A stretch of 64,000 nt of DNA from Chrysomallon squamiferum (taxonomy: Eukaryota; Animalia; Mollusca): assembly GCA_012295275.1 (NCBI GenBank), contig CM022679.1:31558001-31622000 (forward strand). Direction: 5' to 3'. The notes beneath the pieces are model-generated. The model did not search any database and had not been told where the DNA came from. It worked only from the letters and a program-made list of their open reading frames with translations. Positions within the stretch are counted from its first letter, which is position 1; each line of letters begins with the position of its first letter. Below, one piece after another: positions 2,183 through 42,645 of this stretch. The position numbers were made by a program, and so were the translations under genes.

Positions 2183-4502
2183 ATGTCTGTACTGAAACTG
2201 AAAATGTTTCTCGTCTTGCTAATTTTGGGATCAGTGGTGGCCGTGTCAGCTCATAAATCGGAACCTCGCAGACCACCGTAAGATTCATTTTAGCTGTCTT
2301 CTTATGTGAATCCAAATGTAAATTATTTTATTTTGTAAGATTTATTTCTGTTCTTCTTACTCATTAAATATCTGACGAGGTTGGAAAATTGAAGACGAAG
2401 GATTCCAGATTCAGACTATTTAAATGTATCTTTGTATATCCTATCCTCGCTGTTATTTACAAGTAAATGTTATAGAGAAAGAACTAATTCCATTCATATT
2501 TTGTGTAAAACGCTTTATTATATTATTATATGTATTTCTTTTTTGCACATTTTTCAGAACACCGTCAGTGTAATTTATCATTACATGACATTCACACAAT
2601 ATTTCTGTCCTGTATAAAGAAACATACTGTATCAAGTAAACTAATAGCATACAAATTAAAATTAGGAAAAACAATCTGTGAAATAGTGTTTCCTTCTAAT
2701 CCAATAATAAAAAAGAATTAGAATTATTAAGAGTTGAGAATCAGTTTATGTTTCTCCTTCTTTTTCTGTCTTTCTTTGTTTTCTTCCACAACTACAGCAA
2801 CTTCGACCCACGTAGTTATTTTACTAAATTGTACTCATATCAGTGTTCACTTTTCAAAAACAGAAGTAGGGCTTATCTGTGTGTATCAATTTATCTCCAC
2901 ACAGAAGGGTGTGTGTGAGAGAGAGTGGCAAACAGCAGCAAAAACAACAAAAATAATGATGATGATAATACTAAATTGTACTAATATCAGTGTTCACTTT
3001 TACAGATTCAAAAGGAGTATTCGTAGGTGAGTACAGCCAAACCACCTACACCACAACTGCAACCGCCAACACAAAAAACAACATAATCAACAACAACAAC
3101 AACAACAATAATAATAATAATAATAATTCATGATTCCTATGAATATTATATGTGTTGATGAATAGTATGTGTACAGCGGTGAATGGTAATAGTAAGAAAT
3201 GTGATAATTATTTCATTATTATGTCTGCTGAAAAATTGATTTTTATTTTTATTTATGTGTTCCCTTGAGAGAATGGTATGTGTCAATTATCAGTAGGGAT
3301 CTTAACTGTATTTACAACAGTACCAAACAAATTCTTACATCAAAATTGAAGTAACAAATACACATCTGACCTGTTGTAATTTTATGCATTTTAATATAAA
3401 TATTTTTAAATGAATTTTGAGAAGACTAACCATGAGATGGATCCAAATTTATTTTTAAGTTCCGATACTTATTATTTGGTTGATAATTGTTGTTTCTCTT
3501 CAAAATATTAAACAAACAAACAGCCTGGCAAGTCTCATTGTAAGACAATTTAATTCAGCAGAAATATTATATATTGGGTCTTAGTTTTGTAAAACGTATC
3601 GGAAACCATTAAAACAAGTCTCTTTGATATATTCGTAAGTAAATAGAGAGCACCCCACCTGGAAAAAGAACTGAATGGGGATTTCATGCAGTATGAACAT
3701 AATGGCATTAAAACAGACGACAGTGATAAAAAATAAATTGTTAAAAAGGACCTCATTATATATGACAATGCTGATAATGCTGAATTCATTTTCTAACAAA
3801 TGGACACTCAATCAGTTTATGCTTTTTAAACATTCACACTTCTTTTGCTGTAAATTTATAATGTTTTCAATCCCTGTCTAAGTGATGTCCATTATCCTTA
3901 CTATTGTACTAATTCAGCACTTTTTTCCTTACTTTTATTTTACTATTTCTATCAGGATTACATAAAATAATAATAGTAAAATAAAACGAAAAACGTAGTT
4001 TCCATGATTATTTATCTTTATAAAACAGGTACAGAGCTGGCTTGTAAGTCTCATTCTCTTAAACTGTAAGACAAATTACATCAGCTGAAATATTATACTG
4101 TGTTTTAGTTTTCGTAATACACATAGAAACTATTAAATATAACTGTCACTGAATTGCACTGGTTCGGAATAACATTATATTTTTTAATGTTGACAGGAGG
4201 CAATTTCACCATTTAGAAATACAAGAATTCAGTTTCAGAAGACCGTACAAATGTCAAAGCTTATGATTTAAAAATCTCAAAAAATAAGTGAAACATTTCA
4301 CATTACTGTCTAGCACATTGTAAATTCATACCACAAAGGTGAAGATATAATCACGTTTGTGACAAAATCATACTCACATTAAATTTACTAATTTATCTTT
4401 GAGACAGTATATATATTTTTTTTACTTTAACAAAAGACAATAATGTATATTACAGTTTATCTAATGCTGACTATAACAAAATACATTATAAGAAAAAAAA
4501 TG

Positions 4503-4566
<64 letters not shown>

Positions 4567-4687
4567 TAATAATAGTTAATTTAAATTAGCGTTTTTAAAA
4601 AAATGATATTTAAATTTCTAGAAGCTATACTGAATTTAAATTCAAAGCGTTTTTCTCCAAATCTTAAGAATATCATGTGTACAGTTA

Positions 4688-4734
<47 letters not shown>

Positions 4735-5374
4735 CAACAACAACAACAACAACAATAATAATAATAATGATAATACTCTTACACAGCAGTTCAGATAAAC
4801 TTTGTATTTTAAAGACGATGTCAAAATGAAGAGAAAAGATCGAAACAGTTCGTTATCAATAGCTGTATAGTGGTCATCTCAAGTAAAATAAAACAAACAT
4901 GTCTCCGAAATGAGAAAATATGTAATTTGTATTTTCAGGAGAGGCGCCCTACCTGTTATCTCTGATTTGCTTCACATCAGAAGTTGTAAGTGTAGTAGTT
5001 TTTGTCTAAACTAATACAAGAAAGAAAATGTATATTTTTGTGGATACTTATGTACGTAACTAAGCATATATCACTCAGTGAATGTATGTATGTATGTATG
5101 TATGTATTTATGATTGTATGATTGTATGTATGTATGTAGATGTATGCATAAACGTGTGTATCTATGTATGTAGGTATGTCATACATGTGCATCTACGTTT
5201 GCATAGATAGATAGGGACTGAAGAATGAATGGATATTGATAAAAATAATGTCTGATTTAAATTTCTAAATTCTTTAATTATTGCCGGCAGAGAGCTGATA
5301 TTATGTATTTATTTACTGTTTTTCTCGTTTCAGTGTCAGGAAACGAGCGAGAAAGCAAGATGAGCTCACGATAA
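2183..5374 (+). CDS. Family A secreted peptide precursor, copy A1; exons 2183-2277, 3006-3026, 4939-4985, 5334-5374; 67 aa MSVLKLKMFLVLLILGSVVAVSAHKSEPRRPPFKRSIRRRGALPVISDLLHIRSLSGNERESKMSSR
   Basis: Canonical donors (GTAAGA, GTGAGT, GTAAGT) and acceptors (TTTTACAG, TTTTCAG, GTTTCAG). Phases 2/2/1 join into one open frame. Hydrophobic N-terminus, KR and RRR sites, AATAAA at 5373. Same structure in paralogs. Confidence 0.8.
2858..2878 (+). other. Degenerate or alternative micro-exon, paralog of the 21-nt exon at 3006-3026 (would encode NRSRAYL; 15-nt SRAYL from CAG at 2861-2863)
   Basis: Shares the upstream intron sequence ACTAAATTGTACT.ATATCAGTGTTCACTTTT with the 3006 exon. Acceptor is CAA here but CAG in copy A4 (34191-34193). 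Donor is GTGTGT here but TTGTGT in A4. Confidence 0.45.
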
Positions 5375-5481
5375 TAAAATATTGTGTGATGAAAACACTT
5401 AAGTGTCTATTATGAATCTGTTTAACCTATTTCTATCATTCTATTTAGATAAAATGTCATAAAATCATTAACGATTTAACT

Positions 5482-5602
<121 letters not shown>

Positions 5603-6679
5603 CATGCATTTTCTGTAAGCATTATCAGTATTTTATTTTTATAAATGTGAAATAATATATATTTAAAAGACCAAATTTTCACTGAATAACTTTGACTCAT
5701 CTTATTTATAGTGGACTTAAATGTTCTTCTGTTCTTTTTTCGAAATTGAATGTCCTCCAAATCAAGAAAAGTGATAACAATTAATTTTATACTTACTTTT
5801 TCTTTCCCGAATCAAACTGGTCTGCACTTTGTAATTACAAACACAATGTCTATACATTGGAATGCAATGAAACATCACATTTGTTAAACAGATTCCTAGC
5901 GGTGCATCAATACTGTCTAAAACTAAAGCATATCTATATAATATAACAATAGTGCAGCAGTTCGATGAATACATCGGTGAATGATACTTCTCACTTTTTA
6001 AAATATAATTTGTAAAATATTTAACGAGATTATTCTTATTTCCGAGAAAGTAACAATGCCGTTGACGAGACATGAACGTATGACACCCACATATGTATGT
6101 GTATGTGGATGTATATATGTATGTGTGTATATATGTATATATGTATGTATGTATATGTGAGATTAACTGCATACTGAGCCAATAAAAATAACAACTGTCG
6201 AACAAAAAATATTTTCTTTTATAATTGGGAATAAGATGCATCATATTTATACTAAAACAAATTACATACAACATAGCTACTTTCTTCGTATTAATTACAG
6301 TATTCGAGTAAATGTCACAAATAGTGTTTACATAGCACTGAAACTGACAATTATTCTTAAAATGAGTCATCAACACTTTAAAAAAAAATCACTGAATTAA
6401 TAATAATCATCAAAAATAAGAACTCACTAAAACTGATGTTCAATGACGTTACAGAACTGGTTTCTGTAACATATATAAAGTGATAAGTAGATATGTCCTT
6501 AAAATCATGTCCTTCGATTGTACTATTGTTACTGTAATTACTAGCATGAATGTGAATGCATATTCTTACTTCACATAAGGCAATATTGAATTAAACACTG
6601 TTTCCTCTGTTACATTAAAAACATTCCAATTTTGAAAAGAATATGTTCTCTTTCTTAGAAACAGTTTCCAGTTAAAAAT

Positions 6680-7630
6680 ATTTTGTCGAATAGAAACATT
6701 AAAGAGGTACAATTTATACTTTACCTCAGTTTGACAATGTCTGCAATATAGACACATTGTCTCTAGACCAACATTGTGTGAAGTTTAATTGATATGATTG
6801 TGACTCGAATACTGGCACCATCCGTCAGTTTATGTTCAGTTAGATACATCTGATCTAAGATAAGTTAACGTTAACTTACTGGACATATTCCAATTTTATT
6901 ACACCATGAAAAAATGGAGAGATTATAAATTATTGTCGTATTATAAACAATAATACACTTTAATTTAACAGCTATTTGTGGATATTATTGTTGTTATTGC
7001 GCTTGTTGTTTTTAATTACTGTTATTATCATGATCGCCATTATCATTATTATAATCATTTATTCATTTATTTGTTTATTTATTTTAAATAGTATAACATT
7101 TGGTGTTACCATATTTGATGGACCATAATCTACATTACTATTGTTAAAATGGTGTTTAGTCTATTAGTGATCAAGGCTATGTTAAGAAAGAAAACAGACA
7201 CACATATACACACAAAAACTCAGAGATCAACAACAGAAGCGTGATATTAAGAAGTAAAAAAAATTACACCTTAAAAAATAAAAAGTTGTTATTGATATAT
7301 GTACTTTGCAGTTCGTAATAGGTGTTTCAAAAAAAGAGACAAAAGCTGATCTAATAGTACTGACTTATTGGTGACGTCATTTATGTTAGGGATAAAAAGA
7401 TTGATACTCACAGGTAGTAGGGTAATCTGTACAAAGAAGATAAACACTCAGGTGAATAATTTCAAAAATATCTGTGTTTCTATGTGTGTTTGTATTTGTG
7501 AGTGGCTGTGTGTCCACGTGGGAGAAAAAACGTATATATTTGTGAGGAAAGAAGTGTTGGTTATTTCTGGATTGTATGTAAAGGGCATAAAAATCTAGAG
7601 ATACAGAGAGTCATACACACAGAGAGGGAG

Positions 7631-7707
<77 letters not shown>

Positions 7708-8285
7708 TTAACAGTTGCCTATAACTAAAATATTTGGAAATTTTAATATAGTCATTCTCCTGGACATCTAGCTCAGTCCCTGTGTCAGACATATATTTAT
7801 CTTTGTTTCTTCATATTAAAGTGGACTTGAAATATAGTTCACTTACTCCTCAGATCTTATTGATCACCCAAACCGGCTCAGAATAGAAAATAAATTTATT
7901 TTACTGAGTGGAACTTTTCGCTGAATAGAAACTTTAACTAGCTACATGTTACCTCAGCCTGACATTGTCTGTAATAGCTCAGACATAAAGTGTCTGTAGT
8001 CGATCGTTCAGGGATATTTACTTTATGTGATTATGCCTCGTATAGTGGCACTATCCGTCATTTTAAGTTGAGCTACATATATCTTATGTAGGATAAATTA
8101 ATGTGAACTTAATGGACGAATTCTATATGTTTATTATTACATTATGAAGACATCAAAGATATAATAAATGATTCTGTTATTATAAACAATAACAAAATTT
8201 AATTTCACAGCCTTTATGGATGTTGTTATTACTGTTATTGATATTGTTGTTATTATTACAATATTATAATCATGGTTATTATTAA

Positions 8286-8366
<81 letters not shown>

Positions 8367-10179
8367 TTCACATATTTATTTATTTTATATGACATAATTT
8401 TTCCTGTTGCCATATTTGATGAACTGTGATCTACACGATTATTGTTAAAATGGTATTTAATCTAATATTCATCAACATTCAGTTAAGAAAGAGAACGCAC
8501 ACACATATACACATATACCCCTAAACAAACACTCCACTGGATTCGGCCTGAGATACCTCTGAATTATTACTCAGTGTGTACGAATGTAATGCGGAAACTT
8601 TATTTATTTAATAATAATTTAATTATTTGTGAGAACATTTAAAACGTTTCCGGAGATAAAGAAAAGAATAGTGATATTAAAAAATTCACAAAATATCATG
8701 TTGTCCTTTTTTCTCTTTAGAAAAAGAAAAAAAAAAAAACCATTCAAATTACTACTGAGATATATATATTGTACTTCTTAATAGGTGTTCCAAAACAAAG
8801 ACACAAAGTGACATAATAGTGCTCTGTAACTGGTGATGTCATTTATATTAGATTTTAATAGAATGATACTCACTCATCCTCGTCAATATGGCGGGACCTG
8901 TTAAAAAAGAAAAAAGAATCAGGCGAATAATTTAGCAGTTCAAAAATTTGAATTCATATTTTTCCAGTTACTTCACTAGTCAATGTACTAGAAAAAAGTA
9001 AAATAAAAGTGAAAACAATGTAGTAAATATATATATATAAAGATTTGCCTATTACAAAAATGTTTTGAACTTTTAATCATAGATTATTGTTTATCATTAC
9101 AGTCATTCTTTTGCATACCCATGTTTCCCACTGTGTCAAATATATTTATCATAGATTCTTCCTATTAATGTGGACTTAAAATACACTTGACTTACTTGCG
9201 ACTTGGAGTGGATCGCCCCCACCCGCTGAAAATAAAAAATAAAAATATTTCATCGAATAGAAACATTAACCAGGTACAATTTACACTTTACATCCGTTTG
9301 ACAATATCTGCAATATACACACATTGTCTCTAGACCAACATTGTGTGATGTTTAATTTATATGATTATGACTCGAATACTGGCATCATCAGTCAGTTTAT
9401 TTTCAGTTGGATCCATCTTATCCAGAATAAATTAACATTAACTCACTGGACATATTCCAATTTTATTCTAAAAAATAGAGAGATTATAAATTATTCTCGT
9501 ATTATAAACAGTAATACACTTTAATTTAACAGCTATTTGTGGATATTATTGTTGTTATTGCGCTTGTTGTTTTTAATTACTGTTATTATCATGATCGCCA
9601 TTATCATTATTATAATCATTTATTAATTTATTTGTTTATTTATTTTAAATAGTATAACATTTGCTGTTACTATGTTTGATGGACCCTAATCTACATTATT
9701 ATTGTTAAAATGGTATTTAGTCTATTATTTATCAAGGCTCTGTTAAGAAAGAAAACAGACACACATAATCACACAAAAAACACAGAGATGAACAACAGAA
9801 GAGTGATATTAACAAGTAAAAAAAATAACACGTTAAAAAATAAAAGTTGTTATTGATATATGTACTGTGCAGTTCGTAATAGGTGTGGGAAGAAAAGAGA
9901 CAAAAGCTGATCTAATAGTTCTGATTTATTGGTGACGTGATTTATGTTAGGGATTAAAAGATTGATACTCGCAGGAATGGGCTGCTGTACAAAGAAGATA
10001 AACACTCAGGTGAATAATTCCAAAAATATCTGTGTTTCAATAGGTGTGTGTATTTGTGAGTGTCTGTGAAAAAATTGTATATATTTGTGAGGAGAGAAGT
10101 GTTGGTTATTTCTGGATTTTATGTAAAGGGCATAAAAAGCTATAGATACAGAGAGTCATCCACACAGAGAAGGAGAAGC

Positions 10180-10250
<71 letters not shown>
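6680..10250. repeat. Three tandem diverged copies of a ~1.0-1.4 kb unit (about 6680-7705, 7770-8940, 9120-10250) carrying the gene C module
   Basis: Shared blocks such as GAATAGAAAC at about 6688, 7923 and 9255, and TGGTGA(C/T)GT at about 7368, 8831 and 9930. The first and third copies are closely similar. Confidence 0.85.
6725..9984 (-). CDS. Gene C: partial micro-exon peptide precursor, possibly a pseudogene; exons 9984-9973, 9690-9671, 9307-9292, 9225-9196, 8897-8874, 8430-8411, 7968-7953, 7876-7847, 7426-7412, 7129-7110, 6740-6725; reads xSPFLLGSIKHNIVKRIGWGRSTPSRKSRHIDEDESQFIKYDNVRLSRFG*SIRSEELPYYLLWSIKYDIVKL
   Basis: Three repeats of a four-exon module with splice sites at homologous positions. 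Lengths are 12/24/15, 20, 16 and 30 nt, so each module keeps frame. One reading frame runs through with a single stop. Caveats: two GC donors, one GAG acceptor, no start exon found. Confidence 0.55.
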
Positions 10251-10254
<4 letters not shown>

Positions 10255-11869
10255 GTAATTCTTATGGATATGCGTATTAAAAGAAAGACAAAGGGTATAA
10301 ACGTTAGTAAAAATAGCTTTTTTTATTTGATATGATATTATACCTTCAAAATGACAGCCTAGAGTGAAACTATCTTGCTTTGTTTTTTAATACCGAATGT
10401 ATGCAAAAACAAAATGTCAAATATATTGCATTACTAACCTAATTAATGTTCATTCTAATGCGGAACCTTCCGTTTATTACTAACATAAATTCTTAATATA
10501 TTTAATGATTCCAGTACTCGATTATCGATAATGTTGCATTGTATTATATATATTTTTTTCTGTAACGTTATCAATAAATTTCTAATGACTAGTTTGGGTC
10601 CCTAAAAGTATGACTATTAATATGAACACTTTGAGGGATATTATCAAGGATGGTCTCTGAATTTGTATTGCTAAATGATGAACTAACGACAGCTAGAAAA
10701 TCATCAAAAACTTTGTAACTCCGAGTTTAAATAATTCATTTGGCAGAAAACAGTATTCAGTTTTACGATTGATCTTACATAGTTTCATTTTACATCTTCA
10801 TAGTTTTCTTAACATGAATATATTCCTTTAATTAGAATTACATTATATTTGTTTTATTCTTACGAACAATTTTAAGTAAAAAACTCTCATAGTGACGTAG
10901 AGTAAGTCAGACGCAAATGAAATAGCAAAAAAGTGACTAGTGATACAAAACAATTAATAATAATAATAACAAATATAGGAAAGTAGTAGTAGTAATAATA
11001 ATAATATTAAAAAATACTATTAAAATTACATATATAATTAAAGCCATATATTTAGATGAAAGGTTTTATTTCTTATAATTCCATATACGTATTTGTATTG
11101 GAATAGATTAAGATTATTACAAATATATTTAATTACACCTAAAATCCAGAGCACTAAAGAAAGTATTTTATTTTGCACTCATTCACCCGTCTCACATTCA
11201 ACACGGAAAGTTTCCAGTCCTTTATTGTAAAAACAAATGTTACGAAATTAATAAAAACAAAACCTCGTCAAATCTGTTTTGATTTCCTAAAAGAATAAAT
11301 TGAATAAAAACATTTTACTCTTCCCTCTTTAATCGGTATGATTGAAAATTATTATTGATTTCGACAAATATGAAATGTTTTTAATGACAACGTTCTAGTT
11401 TCGATCTGAGTACACTGAAATTTCTTTAAGCCCACCAACTTCATCTCATCTGACTTTTATTTGCACCCACACCGACTTCACAGGTTGCCAACTTTCTTGT
11501 AATTCTGAAACATGGTAAGACGGTCAAGTTCGATGCAGTGGGGGTTTGTGGGTTAAAATGATAATGTTACAAATTTACACTACAGAGTTATAATTCTAAA
11601 GTGGTCTATTAAATACGAACTGACTTTATCAATGCCAAAACCATCGCTTTGAACACCACATGTTCGCACACATACACACACCCGCACGCACACACGTTAT
11701 AGACAGTTTGCAATTAGAATGATTTCATCTTGTTTTACTATTTTCAAAATTTACAACAAGAACAAAAAATAAAATAAAGAAAAGAAACCAGATATTATCA
11801 TGATGTTGGTGATGATAATGACAATAATAATAACAACATCCACAATGAGTAATAACTTATTCTGTTTCA

Positions 11870-14650
<2,781 letters not shown>

Positions 14651-14710
14651 ACTGTTCTCTAAATAATTATTACATGAGTTGTACACTAAATGCTTAAACG
14701 TGTCTCGAAA

Positions 14711-18017
<3,307 letters not shown>

Positions 18018-18732: not shown

Positions 18733-20010
18733 CACAGATACACATACTGATATTCACATGTACATACATACATACATATATCTATATACACATGTACATA
18801 CATAGATAATATACACACATGCATATGTACATACATACACTTTTAAGTTCTTTTTTCTAATAAGCTATAGGTAGTAAGAGTGTGACAGATAGAGAGATAA
18901 TTGTTCATGCATTTACAGTTCAATTATTTTACGTAATCTTCTTAGTAGCTGTTAAAATAGAGACAGACAGAGTGTATGACAGATGTACAGATTAAAATAT
19001 GTCAGTTTTCTTTTTAAGCTGTAACAATTTTAATATTTTTGACTGATTTATACTTTTCTGTCGTAGCACAGAATAATATAATATTCAAATTGTTTATACA
19101 AAATATTTTATTACATTCGAACATGATTATTTTTAAAACCTCGTGTTATCAATATCGTAGATAGTCTTCAAGTAAGACTGTTGAATAAAGCAACTGTTTT
19201 TGATAAGATATTTTCACATCATTTATATACATTTTATCATTAAAGTATCCCGACATTAAAGAAATTTAAAGAACAGATGTAGAGATTAAAATATGTCAGT
19301 TATCTTACTGCAAGATTTATAATTTTTTGTCATATCAAAGACTAATATAATATTCAAATGTCTGTTACAAAATATGTTATTACATTAGTACTTGATTATT
19401 TTAAAACGCTCGTGCATTCGATATAGTACACTTTCTTCTTGCAAGTTTGTTGAATAACACTACTGTTTTCGGTAAGATGTTTTTCACGTTATAACTATTT
19501 TTTAATATTAATATTTATCTTGAAACAAGTATTAGATTTAAACACAATAAACATTTCATAATATTAGGTTATTACATACGTACAAACCTCATGAGAGAAC
19601 TGCGTTCATAATCATGATAGAGAGTGACACGGACATTTTCGTTTTTGAAATTTTCAAAGTCAGTGTGAAATAAAGACAGAGATTGAACTTGAATAGTTAT
19701 TTTCCATTAATTCATCAAGCTAAAATTTATATATTTTTGCAATTAAAATGCTATACATTTGCCGACATCGATAATAAATTTCATTAATACTGCCTGAATT
19801 TAAAGGAAAGAATTTTTACCACTAGAAGCTTATTACTAAAATATGCCGAATGTGATAGTAAATTTCATAAAACAGTTTTGGCAATCATTTAATAGGAAAA
19901 CACGTTGGATTTGATAAATAATCATCCTATAGTCGATATTATAAAGGACATTAAGCTAAACGTATTTTAACAACAAAAAAATCTACATATTACAGTTGAT
20001 CTTGCTCGCA

Positions 20011-20037
20011 ATGTCTGTATTGAAACTGCAAATCTGT
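20011..20037 (+). pseudogene. Family A signal-exon stub (MSVLKLQIC) cut by an inversion junction
   Basis: Upstream region and first 9 codons match other copies. The sequence then switches to the reverse complement of the family A 3' flank. Confidence 0.8.
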
Positions 20038-20338
20038 TTAACAAATATGATGCTTCATTGCATTCCAATGTATATACATTGTGTTTGTAATTACAAAGTG
20101 CAGACCAGTTTGATTCGGGAAAGAAAAAGAAAGTATAAAATTAATTGTTATCACTTTTCTTGGTTTGGAGGACATTCAATTTCGACAAAAGAACAGAAGA
20201 ACAATTAAGTCCACTATAAATGCGATGACGCAAAGTTATTGTTAATGATTTTATGATTTTTTATGTTAATAGAATGATAGAAATAGGTTAAAGAGATTCA
20301 TAATAGACACTTAAGTGTTTTCATCACACAATATTTTA

Positions 20339-20960
20339 TTATCGTGAACTCATCTTGCTTTCTCCCTCTTTTCCTGACACTGAAACGAGAAAAACAGTAA
20401 ATAAATACATAATATCAGCTCTCTGTCGCCAATAATTAAAGAATTTAGAAATTTAAATGAGACATTATTTTTCATCAATATCCATTCATTCTTCAGTCCC
20501 TATCTATCTATGCATACGTAGATGCACATACACACATGGATGACATACCTACATACATAGATAGAAACGTTTATGCATACATCCACATACATATATGCAT
20601 GCATACGATCATACATACATACATACTTACATATATACATATATTCATTCAGTGATATATGCTTAATTTCGTACATAAGTATCCACAAAAATATACATTT
20701 TCTTTCTTGTATTAGTTTAGACGAAAAGTACTACACTTACAACTTCTGAGGTGAGGCGATTCAGTGGTTCTAGGTTCGGCGCCTCTCCTGGAAATACAAA
20801 TTATATTTTTTCTCATTTCGGAGACATGTTTGTTCTATTTTACTTGAGATCACCTCTATACAGCTATTGATAACGAACTGTTCCCATTTTTCTCTCTTCA
20901 TTTTGACATCGTCTTTAAAATACTAAGTTTATCTGAACTGCTGTATAAATATTATTATTG

Positions 20961-20992
<32 letters not shown>

Positions 20993-22946
20993 GATGTTAT
21001 TATTATAATTATTATTATTATTTTTTTTTTTTTCTTATAATGTATTTTGTTATAGTCCGTATTAGATAAACTGTAATATACATTATTGTCTTTTGTTAAA
21101 GTAAAAAAAAAATATATACTGTCTGAAGGATCAATTAGGAAATTTAATGTGAGTATGATTTTGTCGTGGGTTTGTTCACAAACGTGGTTATATCTTCACC
21201 TTTGTAGATATGAATTTAGAAAGTGCTAGACAGTAATGTGAAATGTTTCACTTATTTTTAGAGATTTTAAATCATAAGCTTGGACATTTGTACGGTCTTC
21301 TGAAACTGAATTCTTGTATTTCTAATTGGTGAAATTGCCTCCTGTCAATATTACAAAATATGTTTTTATTCCGAACCGGTGAAAGTCACTGACAGTTATA
21401 TTTAATAGTTTCTAATGCTTATTACGAAAACTAAAACCCAGTATAATATTTCAGCTGATGTAATTTGTCTTACAGTTTAAGAGAATGTAACTTACAAGAC
21501 TGTTCTATACATGTTTTATAAAGATAAATAATCATGGAAACTACGTTTTTCGTTTGTTTAACTTTCATTTTTTTATGCAAGCCTGATGGAAAAAGTAAAA
21601 TAAAAGTAAAGGAAAAAAGTGCTTAATTAGTACAATAGTAAGGATAATAGACTTCACTTAGACAGGGATTGAAAACATTATATATTTACAGCAATATAAG
21701 TGTCAATGGATAAAAATTATCTACTGATAGAATGTGTATTCGTTAGGCAAATGAATTCAGCATTATCAATATTGCGATACACAATGAAGATCATTTGAAC
21801 AGTTTATTTTTAATTAATGCCATAAAGACCATAGGTGCATGAAGTCCTCTTACAATTATTTTTTCGAAGGCAAAATGTATTGGTAGCTATTACTTTAAGA
21901 ATACATCAGTGAGACTTGTACATAACAGTTTCTAATACCTATTAAAAAACTAATACCGAATATAATATTTCCGCTGATGTAATTTGTCTTACTGTTTAAG
22001 AGAATAAAACTCACCAGAAATAATCCCACCTGTTTATAGAAGATAAAAAAAAAAAAAAAAAAAAAAAAAAAACTGTTATAAGAATTGAGTTATTCGGTTA
22101 TTTTGCTTTTATTTTCACCTCTTATCAGATGAGAAAATTTAGAATAAAAGTGAGTCTAATAAGGATAAATATACTTCACAAATACAGAGAAGGAAAAAGT
22201 ATACATTTGCAGCAAAAGAAGTGTGTATGTTTAAAAAGCATAAACTGATAGAGTTTCCGTTTGTTAGAAAAATTAATTCAGCATTATCAACATTGTCATA
22301 TACAATGAAATTTTTTTTAATAATTTATTTTTTAATCAATGTCGTCTGTTTTAAGGCTCTTATGATCATACAGTATGAAATCTCCATTCAAATTTTGTTC
22401 CAAGATCGGGTGCTATCTATTACTTTACGAAGGCATCATTGAGACTTGTTTTTAAAAGTGTCTAGTGTCTATTACAAGACTAAAACCCAATATAATATTT
22501 GTGCTGAAGACATTTGTCTTACAGTTTAAAGAATGAAACTTACCAGGTTCTTTGTGTGTTTGAAATTTTGAACAGAAATAGCCGCTTCTGATCAGTTATC
22601 AAATATTTCAACTAAAAATATATATTTGTATCCATCTAACGGTTAGTCTGCTCAAAATTCACTTCAAAATATTTATATTAAAGCATATATAATTACAACA
22701 GGTCAGATGTGTATTTTCTTCTTCAATTTTGATGTAAGAATTTGTTTCGTACTACTGTAAATACATTTAAAATACTTACTGATAATGATACGTACCATTG
22801 TCTGAAGGGCAAACGTAAATTAAAATAAAAATGAAATTTTCAGCAGAGATAATAATGAAATAATTATCACATTTCTTATTATTACCATTCATCGATATGC
22901 ACATAATATTTATCAGAACCATAAAATTATTATTATTATTATTATT

Positions 22947-22979
<33 letters not shown>

Positions 22980-23819
22980 ATTGAGGATGTTGTTTTGTAT
23001 GATGGCGGTTGCAGTTGTGGTGTAGGTGGTTCGGCTGTACTGTTAGTATCATCATCATCATTATTATTGTTTACCACTCTCTCTCACACACACACTTCTG
23101 TGTGGAGATAAATTGATACACAGAAATAAGCCCTACTTCTGGTTTTGAAAACTGAACACTGATATGAGTACAATTTAGTAAAATAACAACGTGGGTCTAA
23201 GTTGCTGTAGTTGTGGAAAAAAACAAAACAAATAAAGACAGAAAAAGAAAGAGAAACATAAACTGATTCTCAACTCTTAATAATGCTAATTTTTTTTTTA
23301 TTATTGGATTAGAAGGAAACACTATTTCTCAGATTGTGTTTCCTAATTTTAATTTGTATGCCATTAGTTTACTTCATACAGTATGTTTCTTTATACAGGA
23401 CAGAAATATTGTGTGAATGTCATGTAATGATAAATTATACTCACAGTCCGCTGAAATATGTGCAAAAAAGAAATATATATAATAATATAATAAAGTGTTT
23501 TACTCAAGAAGTGAATCGAATCAGTTATTTCTCTATACCATATTAGTGTTAATAAGAGCGAGTATAGGATATGCAAAGACACATTTAAATAGTCTGAATC
23601 TGGAATCCTTCGTCTTCAATTTTCCAACCTCGTCTGATATTTATTGAGTAAGAAGAACAGAAATAAATCTTACAAAATAATATAATTTACATTTGGATTC
23701 ACTCAGTATGAGAGTTAAAATGAATCTTACTTGTTGTGATTCTGAGTGGGTTGTGTCTGGGCAACAACTGATCCCAAAATAAGTAAGACGAGACAGATTT
23801 GCAGTTTCAATACAGACAT
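20339..23819 (-). CDS. Family A copy A3 (inverted); exons 23819-23731, 20787-20741, 20379-20339; 58 aa MSVLKLQICLVLLILGSVVAQTQPTQNHNKRGAEPRTTESPHLRSLSGKEGESKMSSR
   Basis: Canonical GT-AG sites; 89+47+41 nt give an open frame; signal-like N-terminus; KR site formed across the splice junction. Confidence 0.82.
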
Positions 23820-27070: not shown

Positions 27071-28898
<1,828 letters not shown>

Positions 28899-29183
28899 AG
28901 GTGATATGGAGATAAGGTGAGTTTAACGAGAAAGAATAAAATGTAATAGATGTCTCCTGGTTTGATAGGCTTGGATTTTGCCACAGTGTATGATAGAGAT
29001 GTTTTAAAATGTGTTACGGTTCTCAGTGATATAATTAAACTTCACCTCTTCGCAGTGTTAGACTACAGGTTGTGTACTTCCAAATAACTTGCTCGGTCAT
29101 TTATACAGATTTGGAAGAAGCCATTATGTACAGATACGTAGATGTCGAGACATGTACAGATGCATAGATAGATACAACTATAA

Positions 29184-30382: not shown

Positions 30383-33531
<3,149 letters not shown>

Positions 33532-33558
<27 letters not shown>

Positions 33559-36500
33559 CTCGTCTTACTTATTTTGGGATCAGTGGTGGCCCAGACACCA
33601 CCCACTCACAATCACAAAAAGTAAGATTCATTTTAACTCTCATACTGAGTGAATCCAAATGTGAATTATCTTATTTTGTAAGATTTATTTCTGTTCTTCT
33701 TACCGAATAAATATCAGACGAGGTTGGAAAATTGAAGACGAAGGATTCCAGATTCAGACTGTTTAAATGTGTCTTTGTAAATCTTATGCTCGCTTTTATT
33801 TACACGAATATGTTATAGAGAAAGATCTAATTCCATTCACTTCTTGAGTGAAACGCTTTATTATATTATTATATGTATTTCTTTTTTGCACATGCTTCAG
33901 TCCACCGTGAGTATAATTTATCATTACATGACATTCACACAATATTTCGGTCCTGTATAAGAAAACATACTGCATCAAGTAAACTAATGGCATACAAATT
34001 AAAATTAGGAAAAACAATCTGAAATAATCTTTCCTTCTAATCCAACAATAAAAAAGAATTAGAATTATTAAGAGTTGAGAATCAGTTTATGTTTCTCTTT
34101 CTTTTTCTGTCTTTATTATTACCACAACTACAGCAACTTCGACCCACGTTGTTATTTTACTAAATAGTACTCATATCAGTGTTCACTTTTCAGAAACAGA
34201 AGTAGGGCTTATTTTTGTGTATCAATTTATCTCCACACAGAAGTGTGTGTGTGAGAGAGAGAGTGGTAAACAATAATAATGATGATGATGATACTAACAG
34301 TACAGCCGAACCACCTACACCACAGCTGCAACCGCCATCATACAAAACAACATCCTCAATAACAACAACAACAACAACAATAAAAAAAAAAAAAAAAATT
34401 ATGATTCTGATGAATATTATATGTATATCGATGAATGGTAATAATAAGAAATGTGATAATTATTTCATTATTATCTCTGCTGAAGATTTTATTTTTATTT
34501 TAATTTACGTGTGCCCTTCAGAGAATGGTACGTATCAATTATCAGTAAGTATTTTAGATGTATTTACATCAAAATTGAAGAAGAAAATACACATCTGACC
34601 TGTTGTAATTTTATATGCTTTAATATAAATATTTTGAAGTGAATTTTTAGTAGACTAACCGTTAGATGGATACAAATATATATTTTCAGTTGAAATATTT
34701 GATAACTGATCAGAAGTGGCTATTTCTGTTCAAAATTTCAAACACACAAAGAACCTGGTAATTTTCATTCTTTAAACTGTAAGACAAATGACTTCAGCAC
34801 AAATATTATATTGGGTTTTAGTCTTGTAATAGACACTAGACACTTTTAAAAATAAGTCTCAGTGAAATTATTAAAAATTACTTCATTGTATATGACAATG
34901 TTGATAATGCTGAATGAATTTTTCTAACAAACGGACACTCAATCAGTTTATGCTTTTTAAACATAAACACTTCTTTTGCTGCAAATGTATACTTTTTCCT
35001 TCTCTGTATTTATGAAGTATATTTATCTTATTAGACTCACTTTTATTTTAAATTTTATCATCTGATAAGACATGAAAATAAAAGCAATATAACCGAAACA
35101 CTCAATTCTTATGACTGTTTTCTTTGTTTGTTTTTTTATCTTTTATTAACAGGTGGGATTATTTCTGGTGAGTTTTATTCTCTTAAACAGTAAGACAAAT
35201 TATATCAGCAGAAATATTATATTCGGTATTAGTTTTTTAATAGGTATTAGAAACTGTTATGTACAAGTCTCACTGATGTATTCATAAAGTAATAGCTACC
35301 AATACATTTTGCCTTCGAAAAAATAATTGTAAGAGGACTTCATGCACTATGGTCTTTATGGCATTAATTAAAAATAAACTGTTCAAATGATCTTCATTGG
35401 GTATGGCAATATTGATAATGCTGAATTCATTTTTCTAACGAATAGACATTCTATCAGTAGATAATTTTTAACCATTCACACTTCTTTTGCTGTAAATTTA
35501 TAATGTTTTCAATCCCTGTCTAAGTGAAGTCTATTATCCTTACTTTTGTACTAATTAAGCACTTTTTTCCTTTAATTTTATTTTACTTTTTCCGTCAGGC
35601 TTGCATAAAAAAATGAAAGTTAAACAAACGAAAAACGTAGTTTCTATGATTATTTATCTTTATAAAACATGTATAGAACAGGCTTGTAAGTTACATTCTC
35701 TTAAACTGTAAGACAAATTACATCAGCAGAAATATTATACTGGGTTTTAGTTTTCGTAATACGCATTAGAAACTATTAAATATAACTGTCACTGAATTGC
35801 ACCGGTTCGGAATAAAATTATATTTTTTAATGCTGACAGGAGGCAATTTCACCATTTAGAAATACAAGAATTCAGTTTCAGAAGACCGTACAAATGTCCA
35901 AGCTTATGATTTAAAAATCTAAAAAAATAAGTGAAACTTTTCACATTACTGTCTAACACTTTCTACATTCATACCACAAAGGTGAAGATAGAATCACGAT
36001 TGTGAACAAATCCAAGACAAAAATCATACAGACATTTTTCTGACTCAGCAGTTGAGATAAACTTTGTATTTTAAAGACGATGTCTAAATGAAGGGGACAA
36101 ATCTGAACACTTCGTTATAAATATCGGTGTAAAGGTCATCTCAAGTAAAATAAAATAAACATGTCTATGAAAAGAGAATAAAATGTAATTTGTATTTTCA
36201 GGATATTCGGCAAGCGATCTGTTACCTCTGATTCGCCTCACATCAGAAGTTGTAAGTGAAGTACTTTTTGTCTAAACTAACAGAAGAAAGAAAATGTATA
36301 TTTTGTGTGGATACTTATGTACGTAACTAAGCATATATCACTGAATGAATATATGTATATATGTCTGTATGTATGTATGTATGTATGCATGTATGTATGT
36401 GGATGTATGCATAAACGTGTGTATCTATGTATGTAGGTATGTCATGTATGTGTGTACGTGTATCTTCGTATGCATAGATAGATAGGGACTGAAGAATGAA

Positions 36501-36645
36501 TTGATATTGATAAAAAATAATGACTGATTGAATTTCTAAATTCTTTAATTATTGGCGACAGAGAGCTGATATTATGTATTTATTAACTATTTTTCTCGTT
36601 TCAGTGTCAGGAAAAGAGGGAGAAAGCAAGATGAGTTCACGATAA
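33532..36645 (+). CDS. Family A copy A4; exons 33532-33620, 36202-36251, 36605-36645; 59 aa MSVLKQQICLVLLILGSVVAQTPPTHNHKKIFGKRSVTSDSPHIRSLSGKEGESKMSSR
   Basis: Canonical splice sites, open frame (89+50+41 nt), signal-like N-terminus, G-K-R amidation/cleavage motif. Confidence 0.85.
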
Positions 36646-38299: not shown

Positions 38300-39080
38300 T
38301 GTTGAATAACGCAACTGTTTTTGATAAGATCTTTTCACATAGTTTATAAACATTTGATCGTTATAGTATCCCGACATTAAAGAAATTTAAAGAACAGAAA
38401 GACGGTATGACAGATGTAGAGATTAAAATATGTCAGTTACCTTACTGCCAGATTTATAATTTTTTTGTCATATCAAAGACTAATATAATATTCAAATGTC
38501 TGTTACAGAATATGTTCCTACATTAGTACAGAGTGTATGACAGATGTACAGATTAGAATATGTCAGTTTTCTTTTTAAGCTGTAACAATTTTAATATGTT
38601 AGACTGATTTATACTTTTCTGTCGTAGTACAGAATAATATAATATTCAAATCTTTGATACAAAATATTTTATTACATTCGTACATGATTTTAAAAAGCTC
38701 GTGTTATCGATATCATAGATATTCTTCCAGGAAGGCTGTTGAATAACACAACTGTTTTTGATATTTTCGCATGATATATATACATTTTATCATTAAAGTA
38801 TCCCGACATTAAAGAAATTTAAAGGACCGAAAGACAGTGTGACAGATATAGATATTAAAATATGTCAGTTATCTTTCTCAGCTGTCATAATTTGAACATT
38901 TACTGACAGATTTGTAATTTTTTGTCGTTGGAAAGACTAATATAATATTCAAATGTCTGTTACAAAATATGTTCCTACATTAGTACTTGATTATTTTAAA
39001 AGGCTCGTGCATTCGATATAGTACACTTTCTTCCTGCTAGTTTGTTGAACAACACTACTGTTTTCGGTAAGATGTTTTCA
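38300..39080 (+). repeat. Tandem ~300 bp upstream unit, present twice before each plus-strand family A start (1420-1960, 18970-19480, 32480-33010) and further amplified here
   Basis: GACAGAT(G/A)TA(C/G)AGATTAAAATATGTCAGTT at about 1426, 1726, 38409, 38539 and 38841. Confidence 0.75.
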
Positions 39081-39581: not shown

Positions 39582-42371
39582 ATGTCTGTATTGAAACTGC
39601 AAATCTGTCTCGTCTTACTTATTCTGGGATCAGTGGTTGCCCAGACACAACCCATTCAGAATCACAAAAAGTAAGATTCATTTTAACTCTCATACTGAGT
39701 GAATCCAAATGTAAATTATCTTATTTTGTAAGATTTATTTCTGTCCTTCTTACTTAATAAATATCAGACGAGGTTGGAAAATTGAAGACGAAGGATTCCA
39801 GATTCAGACTATTTAAATTTTTCTTTGTATATCCTATCCTCGCTCTTATTTACAAGTATATGTTATAGAGAAATAACTAATTTCATTCACATTTTGTGTA
39901 AAAGGCTTTATTATATTATTATATATATTTCTTTTTTGCACATCCTTCAGTCCACCGTGAGTATAATTTATCATTACATGACATTCACACAATATTTCTG
40001 TCCTGTATAAAGAAACATACTGCATCAAGTAAACTAATGGCATACAAATTAAAATTAGGAAAAACAATCTGAGAAATAGTGTTTCCTTCTAATCCAATAA
40101 TAAAAAAGAATTAGAATTATTAAGAGCTGATAATTAGTTTATGTTTCTCTTTCTTTTTCTGTCTTTCTTTGTTTTGTTTTTTTCCACAACTACAGCAACT
40201 TAGACCCACGTTGTTATTTGAAACATCATCAACAACAACAACAACAACAACAATAATAATAATAATAATAAATAATAATAATAATAATAAATAATAATAA
40301 TAATAATTGATGATTCTGATGAATATTATATGTGATGATGAATAGTATATGTACAACGATGGATGGTAATAATAAGAAATGTTATAATTATTTCATTATT
40401 ATGTCTGCTGAAAAAATTATTTTTATTTTTATTTATGTGTGCCCTTCAGACAATGGTATGTATCAATTACCAGTAGGTATCTTAAATGTGTTTACAGCAG
40501 TACCAAACAAATTCTTACATCAAAATTGAAGAAACAAATACACATCTGACCTGTTGTAATTTTATGCACTTTAATATAAATATTTTTAAATGAATTTTGA
40601 GATGACTAACCATGAGATGGATTCAAATTTATTTTTAAGTTCCGATACTTATTATTTGATTGATAATTGTTTCTCTTCAAAATATCAAACAAACAAACAG
40701 CCTGGTAAGTCTCATTCTCTTAAATTGTAAGACAATTTAATTCAGCAGAAGTATTATATATTGGGTCTTAGTTTTGTAAAACGTATCAGAAACCATTAAA
40801 ACAAGTCTCTTTGATATATTCGTAAGTTAATAGAGAGCACCCCACCTGGAAAAAGAACTGAATGGGGATTTCATGCAGTATGAACATAAGGGCATTAAAA
40901 CAGACGACATTGATAAAAAATAAATTGTTAAAAAGGACCTCATTATATATGACAATGCTGATAATGCTGAATTCATTTTCTAACAAATGGACACTCAATC
41001 AGTTTATGCTTTTTAAACATTCACACTTCTTTTCCTGCAAATATATACTTTTTACTTCCCTGTATATGTGAAGCATATTTATCCTTATTAGTGTATTGAT
41101 TAAGGACTTTTTTCTTTGATTGTTTGTCACTTTTATTCTTTGTTTTGCTATCTGATAATATATCAAAATAAAAGTAACACAATCAAAACATCTTTTTTTT
41201 TATCTTTTTAAAACAGGTCGAGAAGACATTCGTGAGTCCTATTCTCTTAAACTCTAAGACAAATTACATCAGCAGAAATATTATATTGGGTCTTAGTATT
41301 AGAAATATAAAGTACAAGTCTCACTGATATATTTATAAAGTAATAGGTACCCTTAAATTTTGCCTTCGAAAAACATTAGAATGAGGACTTCATGCACTAT
41401 GTTCATCATGACCATAAAACAGGACTTTTTGTGTGTGACAATGTTCATAATGCTGAATTCATTTTTCTAACGAGTAGACGTTCCATCAGTTTGTAATATA
41501 AACATTGAACTGCTTTTGCAGCAAATGTATACTTTTTCCTTAACTGTATATCTGAAGTATATTTATCCTTATTTCTGTCACTCGTATTTTTAATTTTGTC
41601 AACTCATAATACATCAAACTAAAAGTAATACAACCGAAACACTCAATTCTTATGACTGGATTTTTTTTTTTTTTAATCTTTTAGAAACAGATGGACAAAT
41701 ACCGGGTGAATTTTATGCTCTTAAACATTAAGACAAATTACATCAGAGGAAATATTATATTGGGTTTTATTTTTCTAATATGTATTAGAAATGTTAAGTA
41801 CAAGTCTCACTGATATATTTATAAAGTAATAGGTACCCTTAAATTTTGCCTTCGAAACAAATTAGAATGATGACTTCATGCACTATGTTCATCATAGCCT
41901 TAAAGCAGATGACATTCATTAAAAATAGTTTTCGTAATACGCATTCGAAACTAATAAATATAACTGTCACTGAATTGCACCGGTTCGGAATAAAATTATA
42001 TTGTTCAATGTTGACAGGAGGCAATTTCACCATTTACAAATAAAAGAATTCAGTTTGAGAAGACCGTACAAATGTCCAACCTTATGATTTAAAATCTCTA
42101 AAAATAAGTGAAACATTTCACATTACTGTCTAGCACTTTGTAAATTCATATCTACAAAGGTGAAGATATAATCACGTTTGTGAACAAACCCACGACAAAA
42201 TCATACTCACATTAAATTTCCTAATTGATCCTTCAGACAGTATATATATATTTTTTTGCTAATAATAATAATTTAAAAAAATGGTAATTAAATTTCTAGA
42301 AGATATACTGAATTTAAAATCAAAGCGTTTTTCTCCAAATCTTAAGAATATCATGTGTACAGTTAAATAAA

Positions 42372-42425
<54 letters not shown>

Positions 42426-42645
42426 GACAACAACAATAATAATAATGATAATACTCTTACACAGCAGTTCAGATAAACTTAGTATTTTAAAGACGATGTC
42501 AAAATGAAGAGAAAAGATCGGAACAGTTCGTTATCAAAAAACTGTATAGAGGTTATCTCAAGTAAAATAAAATAAAATGTAATTTGTATTTTCAGGATAA
42601 TCGGCAAGCGATCTGTTATCTCTGATCTGCCTCACATCAGAAGTT
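39582..42645 (+). CDS. Family A copy A5, 3'-partial (last exon falls in the gap); exons 39582-39670, 42596-42645; MSVLKLQICLVLLILGSVVAQTQPIQNHKKIIGKRSVISDLPHIRS...
   Basis: Canonical splice sites, open frame, GKR motif; the following intron is colinear with the paralogs up to the N run. Confidence 0.8.
40700..41990 (+). repeat. Intronic tandem repeat of a ~0.4-0.5 kb unit, three full copies here and two to four in other family A introns
   Basis: Motif TCTCTTAAA..TAAGACAAATTACATCAGC.GAAATATTATA.TGGG at about 40717, 41243 and 41718; also about 3540, 4055, 34770, 35180, 35698 and reversed at 21440-22530. Confidence 0.75.

Follow-up and report, generated by a model that had tools for sequence, protein, structure and literature searches.

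Candidate micro-exon modules in Chrysomallon squamiferum are probably orphaned copies of the 3' half of a neighboring predicted secreted-peptide gene family

Three consecutive modules of candidate micro-exons (U1, U2, and U3), located on the minus strand of a 64,000-nucleotide window of the Chrysomallon squamiferum genome (contig CM022679.1), appear to be tandemly duplicated, diverged copies of the 3' half of a gene family found in the same window (family A), and with a probability of roughly 60% we regard them as an orphaned fragment without a start exon. The duplicated micro-exon module as such is confirmed: a preliminary description of this DNA had proposed eleven candidate exons in three minus-strand modules, and all 11 are present at the lengths proposed, with single-exon translations that we reproduced in the same frame (Table 1). 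That description overlooked family A, an intact-looking neighbor with a predicted signal peptide, as well as the truncation of U3 at position 6673.

Table 1. Modules, candidate exons, and neighboring features in the window (position 1 is the first letter of the window)
Feature	Positions	Strand	Description
Module U1	9010-10250 (approximate)	-	Starts in a (TC)n tract at 10180-10250
U1a	9984-9973	-	Variable exon of 12 nt; donor GC; X-SPF-X when read in phase 2; homologous to the 15-nt exon module of family A
U1b	9690-9671	-	20-nt candidate; poor acceptor (15th percentile); X-LGSIKH-X
21-nt candidate	9447-9467	-	Splice sites strong in U1 but not in U2 or U3; symmetric; reads X-IKLEYV-X, without a stop, in phase 2
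U1c	9307-9292	-	16-nt candidate; phase 1, X-IVKR-X
U1d	9225-9196	-	30-nt exon; X-GWGRSTPSR-X; aligned with the family A amidation exon
Extra U1 candidate	8972-8987	-	After a strong acceptor at 8988; phase 2 X-TLTSEVTGKI-stop (10 codons)
Module U2	7710-9010 (approximate)	-	Older duplicate; ~23% intron divergence
U2a	8897-8874	-	24-nt variable exon; X-SRHIDED-X
U2b	8430-8411	-	20-nt candidate; weak acceptor; GC donor; X-SQFIKY-X
U2c	7968-7953	-	16-nt candidate; X-NVRL-X
U2d	7876-7847	-	30-nt exon; GAG acceptor; X-RFG, then in-frame stop
Module U3	6673-7705	-	Recent copy of U1; a (TC)n tract at its start, as in U1; truncated at 6673, ahead of the d exon
U3a	7426-7412	-	15-nt variable exon; X-LPYY-X
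U3b	7129-7110	-	20-nt candidate; poor acceptor; X-LWSIKY-X
U3c	6740-6725	-	16-nt candidate; X-IVKL-X
A1	2183-5374	+	Signal exon 2183-2277; candidates of 6, 21, 6, 15, 12, and 47 nt; terminal exon 41 nt
A2	14711-16715	+	3' half only; within segmental duplicate 14711-18017 of 3383-6674 (96% identical)
A3	20339-23819	-	Nearest same-strand signal exon upstream of the U modules
A4	33532-36645	+	Penultimate exon X-IFGKRSVTSDSPHIRS-X
A5	39582-42645	+	Penultimate exon X-IIGKRSVISDLPHIRS-X; N gap reached before the terminal exon
53-bp satellite	43061-63995 (to window end)		~387 copies; strong strand skew; TTAGGG in some units

RESULTS

Setting of the cluster

The DNA of the window is AT-rich (GC of 0.23 to 0.34), abounds in microsatellites, and contains two 200-base gaps. 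Positions 1 to 43000 form a mosaic of recently duplicated pieces, in which Rfam gave 0 matches, and are followed by a long satellite array; the cluster may be located subtelomerically. Four copies of an element of about 500 bp, 70 to 76% alike and present in both orientations, lie at 11871-14598 and possibly represent a small transposon. On the plus strand, opposite the U modules, a 31-nt exon-like stretch at 11484-11514 ends in ATG, is followed by a strong donor, and is possibly the first exon of another gene. A separate family (family C, 27071-28900, plus strand) comprises a signal-like exon, MTFLRTATLVMLITVSLC, in phase 1, four tandem 39-nt exons that read X-KR-DDDTPFHSVE-X or variants thereof, each with an (AG)n tract beside it, and a terminal exon that reads X-RKRDES-stop; the third repeat exon (28129-28167) has a stop in frame. 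Family C looks like a multicopy precursor of acidic peptides in which each exon would be one peptide.

Family A

Family A is represented by five copies in the window, four with a predicted signal-peptide exon and one consisting of the 3' half only. The four signal exons read MSVLK...LVLLILGSVVA and all end in phase 2; they are putative signal peptides by a hydropathy scan, which predicts a hydrophobic N terminus. Candidate exons of 6, 6, and 15 nt, and sometimes also of 21, 15, or 12 nt, follow the signal exon, and the 3' end is made up of an exon of 47 or 50 nt and a terminal exon of 41 nt that has a stop codon and AATAAA. Micro-exons account for about 13 to 25% of the predicted coding length (27/207 nt in A4 and 60/243 nt in A1). 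About 200 to 550 nt 5' of each family A signal exon, a conserved plus-strand donor (1927-1953, 19446-19471, 32973-32998, and 39041-39066) is likely the end of a noncoding 5' exon. A family A signal exon truncated to its first 10 codons and fused to inverted duplicate sequence lies at 20011-20040 (plus strand), and three pieces matching the Pfam family SRCR (PF00530; 36880-36980, 37681-37830, and 38020-38170, plus strand; E values of 1e-6 to 2.5e-7) sit immediately 3' of copy A4.

Searches of protein collections with the family A signal exon did not reveal a homologue. An alignment of the signal exons gave three matches with E values of 1.1 to 6.2 among 7335 protein candidates of 23 to 91 amino acids, three with E values of 1.1 to 8.3 among 7993 longer candidates, and three with E ≤ 0.001 in a set of 1.84 billion representatives; the last three are repetitive, unrelated proteins. 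Pfam returned 0 families for the signal exons of families A and C (two of the five queries), and metagenome contigs contained 0 matches to two exact DNA patterns.

The U modules align with the 3' half of family A

Judged by profiles and pairwise alignment, U1, U2, and U3 are homologous to the 3' half of family A, from which they have diverged while remaining collinear over introns as well as exons. Profiles of family A matched the a-exon module on the minus strand with E values of 3e-10 (U2), 1.7e-7 (U3), and 7.3e-7 (U1), whereas the best match in a reversed-sequence control had an E value of 6.3e-4 and involved only AAT-rich columns. The intron following U1d aligns to the last intron of family A in three of the four copies (z of 5.6 to 6.2, 0/100 shuffles; A5 is cut by the gap), and this alignment stops just before the terminal acceptor. 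U1d with its flank fell on the 47/50-nt amidation exon in three of four copies (z of 2.1 to 3.3); the acceptor and the donor were both in register, and G-R-S faced the G-K-R-S of family A; a longer U1 query from c to d reached that exon in only one of the four. For U2d with its flank, the alignment reached the amidation exon in all four copies at nonsignificant z values of 0.1 to 1.4 (0.3 to 4.2 with the c region added). Because the alignment scores differ in this way, we consider the a module and the last intron to be firmly homologous, whereas for the d exon itself the homology is moderate.

The family A profiles did not match a terminal exon in the U modules, and neither profiles nor alignment detected homology to the 5' part or the terminal exon of family A within 6674-14710. 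Segment 8898-9020 aligns to an intron preceding a 15-nt exon with a z of 4.3, versus 1.8 to 3.1 for the terminal exon, and this switch to homology with the pre-15-nt intron likely marks the junction of the duplication.

Exons change faster than introns

Measured as raw differences rather than dN/dS, exon divergence appears to be about twice the intron rate or more, the p values given here being only indicative because several tests were made without correction and the family A exons were chosen from the alignment. Between U1 and U2, the d exons differ at 15/30 positions versus 202/858 in the aligned introns (p = 0.002), and between U1 and U3, exons a, b, and c together differ at 10/48 versus 65/856 (p = 0.004); for b and c alone, three pairwise tests were nonsignificant (p = 0.06, 0.19, and 0.76). 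For the same two exons, a branch test of the changes after the U1/U3 split gave 5/36 versus 22/708 for U1 (p = 0.007) and 0/36 for U3. All six pairs within family A show exon differences of 0.17 to 0.34 versus intron differences of 0.06 to 0.15 (p = 1e-11 to 6.5e-3), with the qualification that these exons were hand-picked from the alignment, which favors variable spots, and that paralogous 15-nt modules are possibly mispaired. The signal codons of family A differ at 2 to 8 of 60 positions.

Splice sites and the composition of the U1 chain

All 11 candidates have an AG acceptor and nine have a GT donor, the other two (U1a and U2b) having GC; five are symmetric and six asymmetric. Splice sites were scored with a generic matrix that is not specific to this species, and acceptors were ranked among 151 AG sites. 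On this scale, the acceptors of the a exons reach percentiles of 97 to 99, those of the c exons 87 to 91, U1d 95, and U2d 78, but those of the three b exons only 15 to 50. Thresholds of at least 5 bits for the acceptor and at least 3 bits for the donor are passed by seven of the 11 candidates and failed by the three b exons and U2d; the b acceptors look like background. Family A has no AG at the place homologous to the 20-nt exons, and these b exons are weakly supported.

The sites of the 21-nt candidate in U1 (96th and 98th percentiles) are the strongest of that module after those of d. Its inclusion had been described as introducing an in-frame stop; this happens only if it is entered from the 20-nt exon, and by itself the candidate is symmetric and open in phase 2. 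Because of this open phase, its use would alter upstream residues only and would not refute the G-W-G-R ending. It is conceivable, although we hold the idea tentatively, that the U1 chain consists of a, the 21-nt exon, and d, all symmetric as in family A, rather than of a, b, c, and d, an arrangement that fits either fate of the gene discussed below. Besides its strong sites and open frame, such a chain would accord with the b and c donors scoring lower in U1 than in U3, but the acceptor AG is missing in U3, the donor GT is missing in U2, and, in contrast to the hypervariable exons, the candidate is unchanged between U1 and U3 (0/21 differences). Its acceptor in U1 looks newly arisen, since the longer upstream state is common to U2 and U3.

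Orphaned fragment or live gene

For the U modules, a scan that recovered all four family A signal exons found no phase-2 signal exon upstream of the cassettes, where family A has one, as far as position 20240 on the minus strand; in that interval, it gave only microsatellite-derived or unconvincing open reading frames. The preliminary description had not located a start exon either, and profiles and local alignment detected none within 6674-14710. Two candidates were rejected. A putative decayed start exon near 11505 (minus strand) shares an 11-nt match with the acceptor of the A1 signal exon, but its local alignment has a z of 0.6 and a better hit exists elsewhere; an open reading frame at 12725, obtained in a loose scan, runs for 12 codons to a weak donor in phase 2 and does not resemble a signal exon. 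At the other end of the array, the junction at 6673/6674 is sharp: U3 stops before its d exon, and the 96%-identical segmental duplicate resumes. Because no start exon was detected at the locus, an orphaned fragment is likely, and the simplest reading would be a once-functional paralogue that was copied or stranded without its start. A strongly diverged start exon could escape the scan.

Alternatively, U1 and U2 might belong to a live gene whose start exon is far away or has escaped detection; the A3 signal exon, which lies about 13.7 kb upstream on the same strand, would be an example. The precursor encoded by such a gene would release a GW-amide peptide and, if the U1d/U2a junction forms a dibasic site, as it may, also an RF-amide peptide ending in Gly-stop; otherwise, it would terminate via the 8988 acceptor after U1d, and the candidate behind that acceptor may be how U1 ends. 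The phases are compatible, the A3 signal exon also ending in phase 2; the last residue of U1d is Arg, followed by a split codon for which the next exon determines whether Lys or Asn results; and a lone C-terminal Gly is known to serve as an amidation substrate. Moreover, the a and d exons retain strong splice sites, and exon change is accelerated on the U1 branch. The splice sites of U1 and U2, most of which are intact, together with exon divergence after the U1/U3 split, would fit a gene that is alive or was so until recently. Against this stand the failure to detect a start exon nearby, the fact that A3 carries its own terminal exon with a stop (AATAAA lies behind the homologous stop), the GC donors of U1a and U2b, the GAG acceptor of U2d, and the poor b acceptors. 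We consider a live gene unlikely.

Chance pairs

Micro-exon-like pairs of 6 to 36 nt number 10 on the minus strand, versus a mean of 2.5 and a maximum of 7 in 200 dinucleotide shuffles (0/200 reach 10), but the pair count alone is weak evidence, since ten control stretches of the same length within the window gave counts of 1 to 9 and the three modules are related to one another rather than independent. Exon homology to family A and the faster divergence of the exons appear to be the stronger evidence. That there are no exons, and that the AG...GT pairs are chance matches within a duplicated AT-rich intron or repeat, is thus highly improbable, despite controls with up to nine pairs and background-level scores of the b exons, because the modules match exons of a signal-peptide gene family in register and the exons change faster than their flanks.

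Amidation signal and neuropeptide-like endings

The phase 2 frame of the earlier reading is given independently by the signal exons of all four family A copies that have one. Read alone in this phase, the homologous exon of family A gives I-F-G-K-R-S in A4, I-I-G-K-R-S in A5, and R-G-A in A1, A2, and A3, and the same exon gives G-W-G-R-S in U1 and R-F-G-stop in U2. A glycine with basic residues or a stop directly after it is the standard context for amidation. Because the paralogues read in this manner, the amidation signal would be a trait of the family and the two residues preceding it would vary freely; at least four different endings (IF, II, GW, and RF) appear to be sampled. The proposal that a duplicated module had diverged into two amidated C termini is upheld insofar as U1 and U2 carry a homologous signal with different preceding residues. 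Its assignment of these termini to the RFamide and Wamide families is not, since the match is limited to two residues, the paralogues end differently, and the published motifs are absent. The GW and RF endings are likely chance variants rather than inherited signatures of neuropeptide families.

The motif of APGWamide is x-P-G-W-amide in repeated copies; in U1 there is a single copy, and the split codon formed with U1c or with the 21-nt exon cannot give Pro. NPF requires a C-terminal R-x-R-F-amide and short NPF an M/T/L/F-R-F-amide (PMC6389622), and allatostatin-B/MIP combines an N-terminal W with a C-terminal W-amide (PMC6425005). The a-b-c-d chain has L at residue -4, which does not fit R-x-R-F, and S at residue -3 (a split codon dependent on the upstream exon), which does not fit short NPF, FMRFa, or LFRFa; a second W is absent from U1a, U1b, U1c, and the 21-nt exon. 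What U1 and U2 have in common with NPF, short NPF, allatostatin-B, and APGWamide is a C-terminal RF or W followed by Gly; they differ in that the peptide is spread over several micro-exons and has a hypervariable C terminus. Genuine RFamide (NPF, sNPF, and FMRFa/LFRFa) and Wamide (AstB/MIP and APGWa) neuropeptide genes are therefore scarcely credible here: R-F-G and G-W-G-R do occur in the supported frame, but both lack the motifs just listed, both are encoded by one homologous exon that gives IF or II in paralogues, and that exon changes fastest (15/30), the opposite of neuropeptide C termini.

DISCUSSION

In the scheme that we propose for the family, a signal-peptide exon ending in phase 2 would open the product, a run of symmetric cassettes of 6 to 24 nt would encode a hypervariable mature peptide, and an exon of 30 to 50 nt would supply the last two residues together with the amidation and cleavage signal. 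The predicted products would be secreted, of short length, and terminated by an amidation signal of the form Gly-(Lys)-Arg. Divergence values suggest an order of events for the U modules, in which the U1/U2 duplication would have come first (~23%), a second block duplication between (TC)n tracts would have produced U3 (7.6%), and a younger segmental duplication (~4%) would then have cut U3 at 6673. Exon change above the intron rate would resemble that of venom, defense, or host-interaction peptides, and a function of the family in venom, defense, or reproductive signaling is suggested solely by this evolutionary pattern.

Genes built from exons of 6 to 30 nt escape annotation based on open reading frames, and family A is a better experimental target than the U-module fragment. 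If expressed, the cluster would join a cassette architecture like that of micro-exon genes (MEGs) with prohormone-type amidation, a combination by which peptides could diversify fast, and would allow a direct test of the de novo origin of neuropeptide-like C termini. It is tempting to speculate further that the cluster is a peptide library outside the known MEG families, in which symmetric cassettes and a hypervariable amidation exon would yield many amidated peptides, and that live U modules would mimic, with a GW-amide and an RF-amide, two unrelated neuropeptide families by convergence, the families imitated being those of prey, predators, or mates; we regard this as quite improbable. A micro-exon family of amidated peptides was not found described in the literature searched, which covered few subscription journals.

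The closest architectural parallel in the sources considered is with the MEGs of schistosomes, which, as described in PMC4350168 and PMC4015677, combine a signal peptide with very small symmetric internal exons and occur in tandem copies, their mature part outpacing the signal part in evolution; skipping of exons generates pools of isoforms, up to 75% of the coding sequence lies in micro-exons, and these genes are apparently restricted to flatworms. Measured against that description, family A shares the tiny symmetric exons and the tandem copies, its hydrophobic N terminus would be a signal peptide, and its mature part likewise changes faster than its signal part (six of six pairs, in raw differences). 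In contrast to MEGs as described there, coding sequence lying mostly in very small symmetric exons is found neither in family A, where micro-exons are a minority (~13 to 25% versus up to 75%), nor in the U modules, where six of the 11 candidates are asymmetric, and the products end at a predicted amidation signal. A second parallel is offered by the SF1 doppelganger toxins of octopus, one of 44 superfamilies in a preprint (bioRxiv 10.64898/2026.02.02.703354), which describes tandem-arrayed, small secreted precursors within a single family that diverged to different neuropeptide-like C termini without descent from those neuropeptides. SF1 open reading frames mostly occupy two exons according to the same preprint, whereas at least six coding exons are predicted here. 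The likeness lies in the drift of tandem secreted precursors through neuropeptide-like endings.
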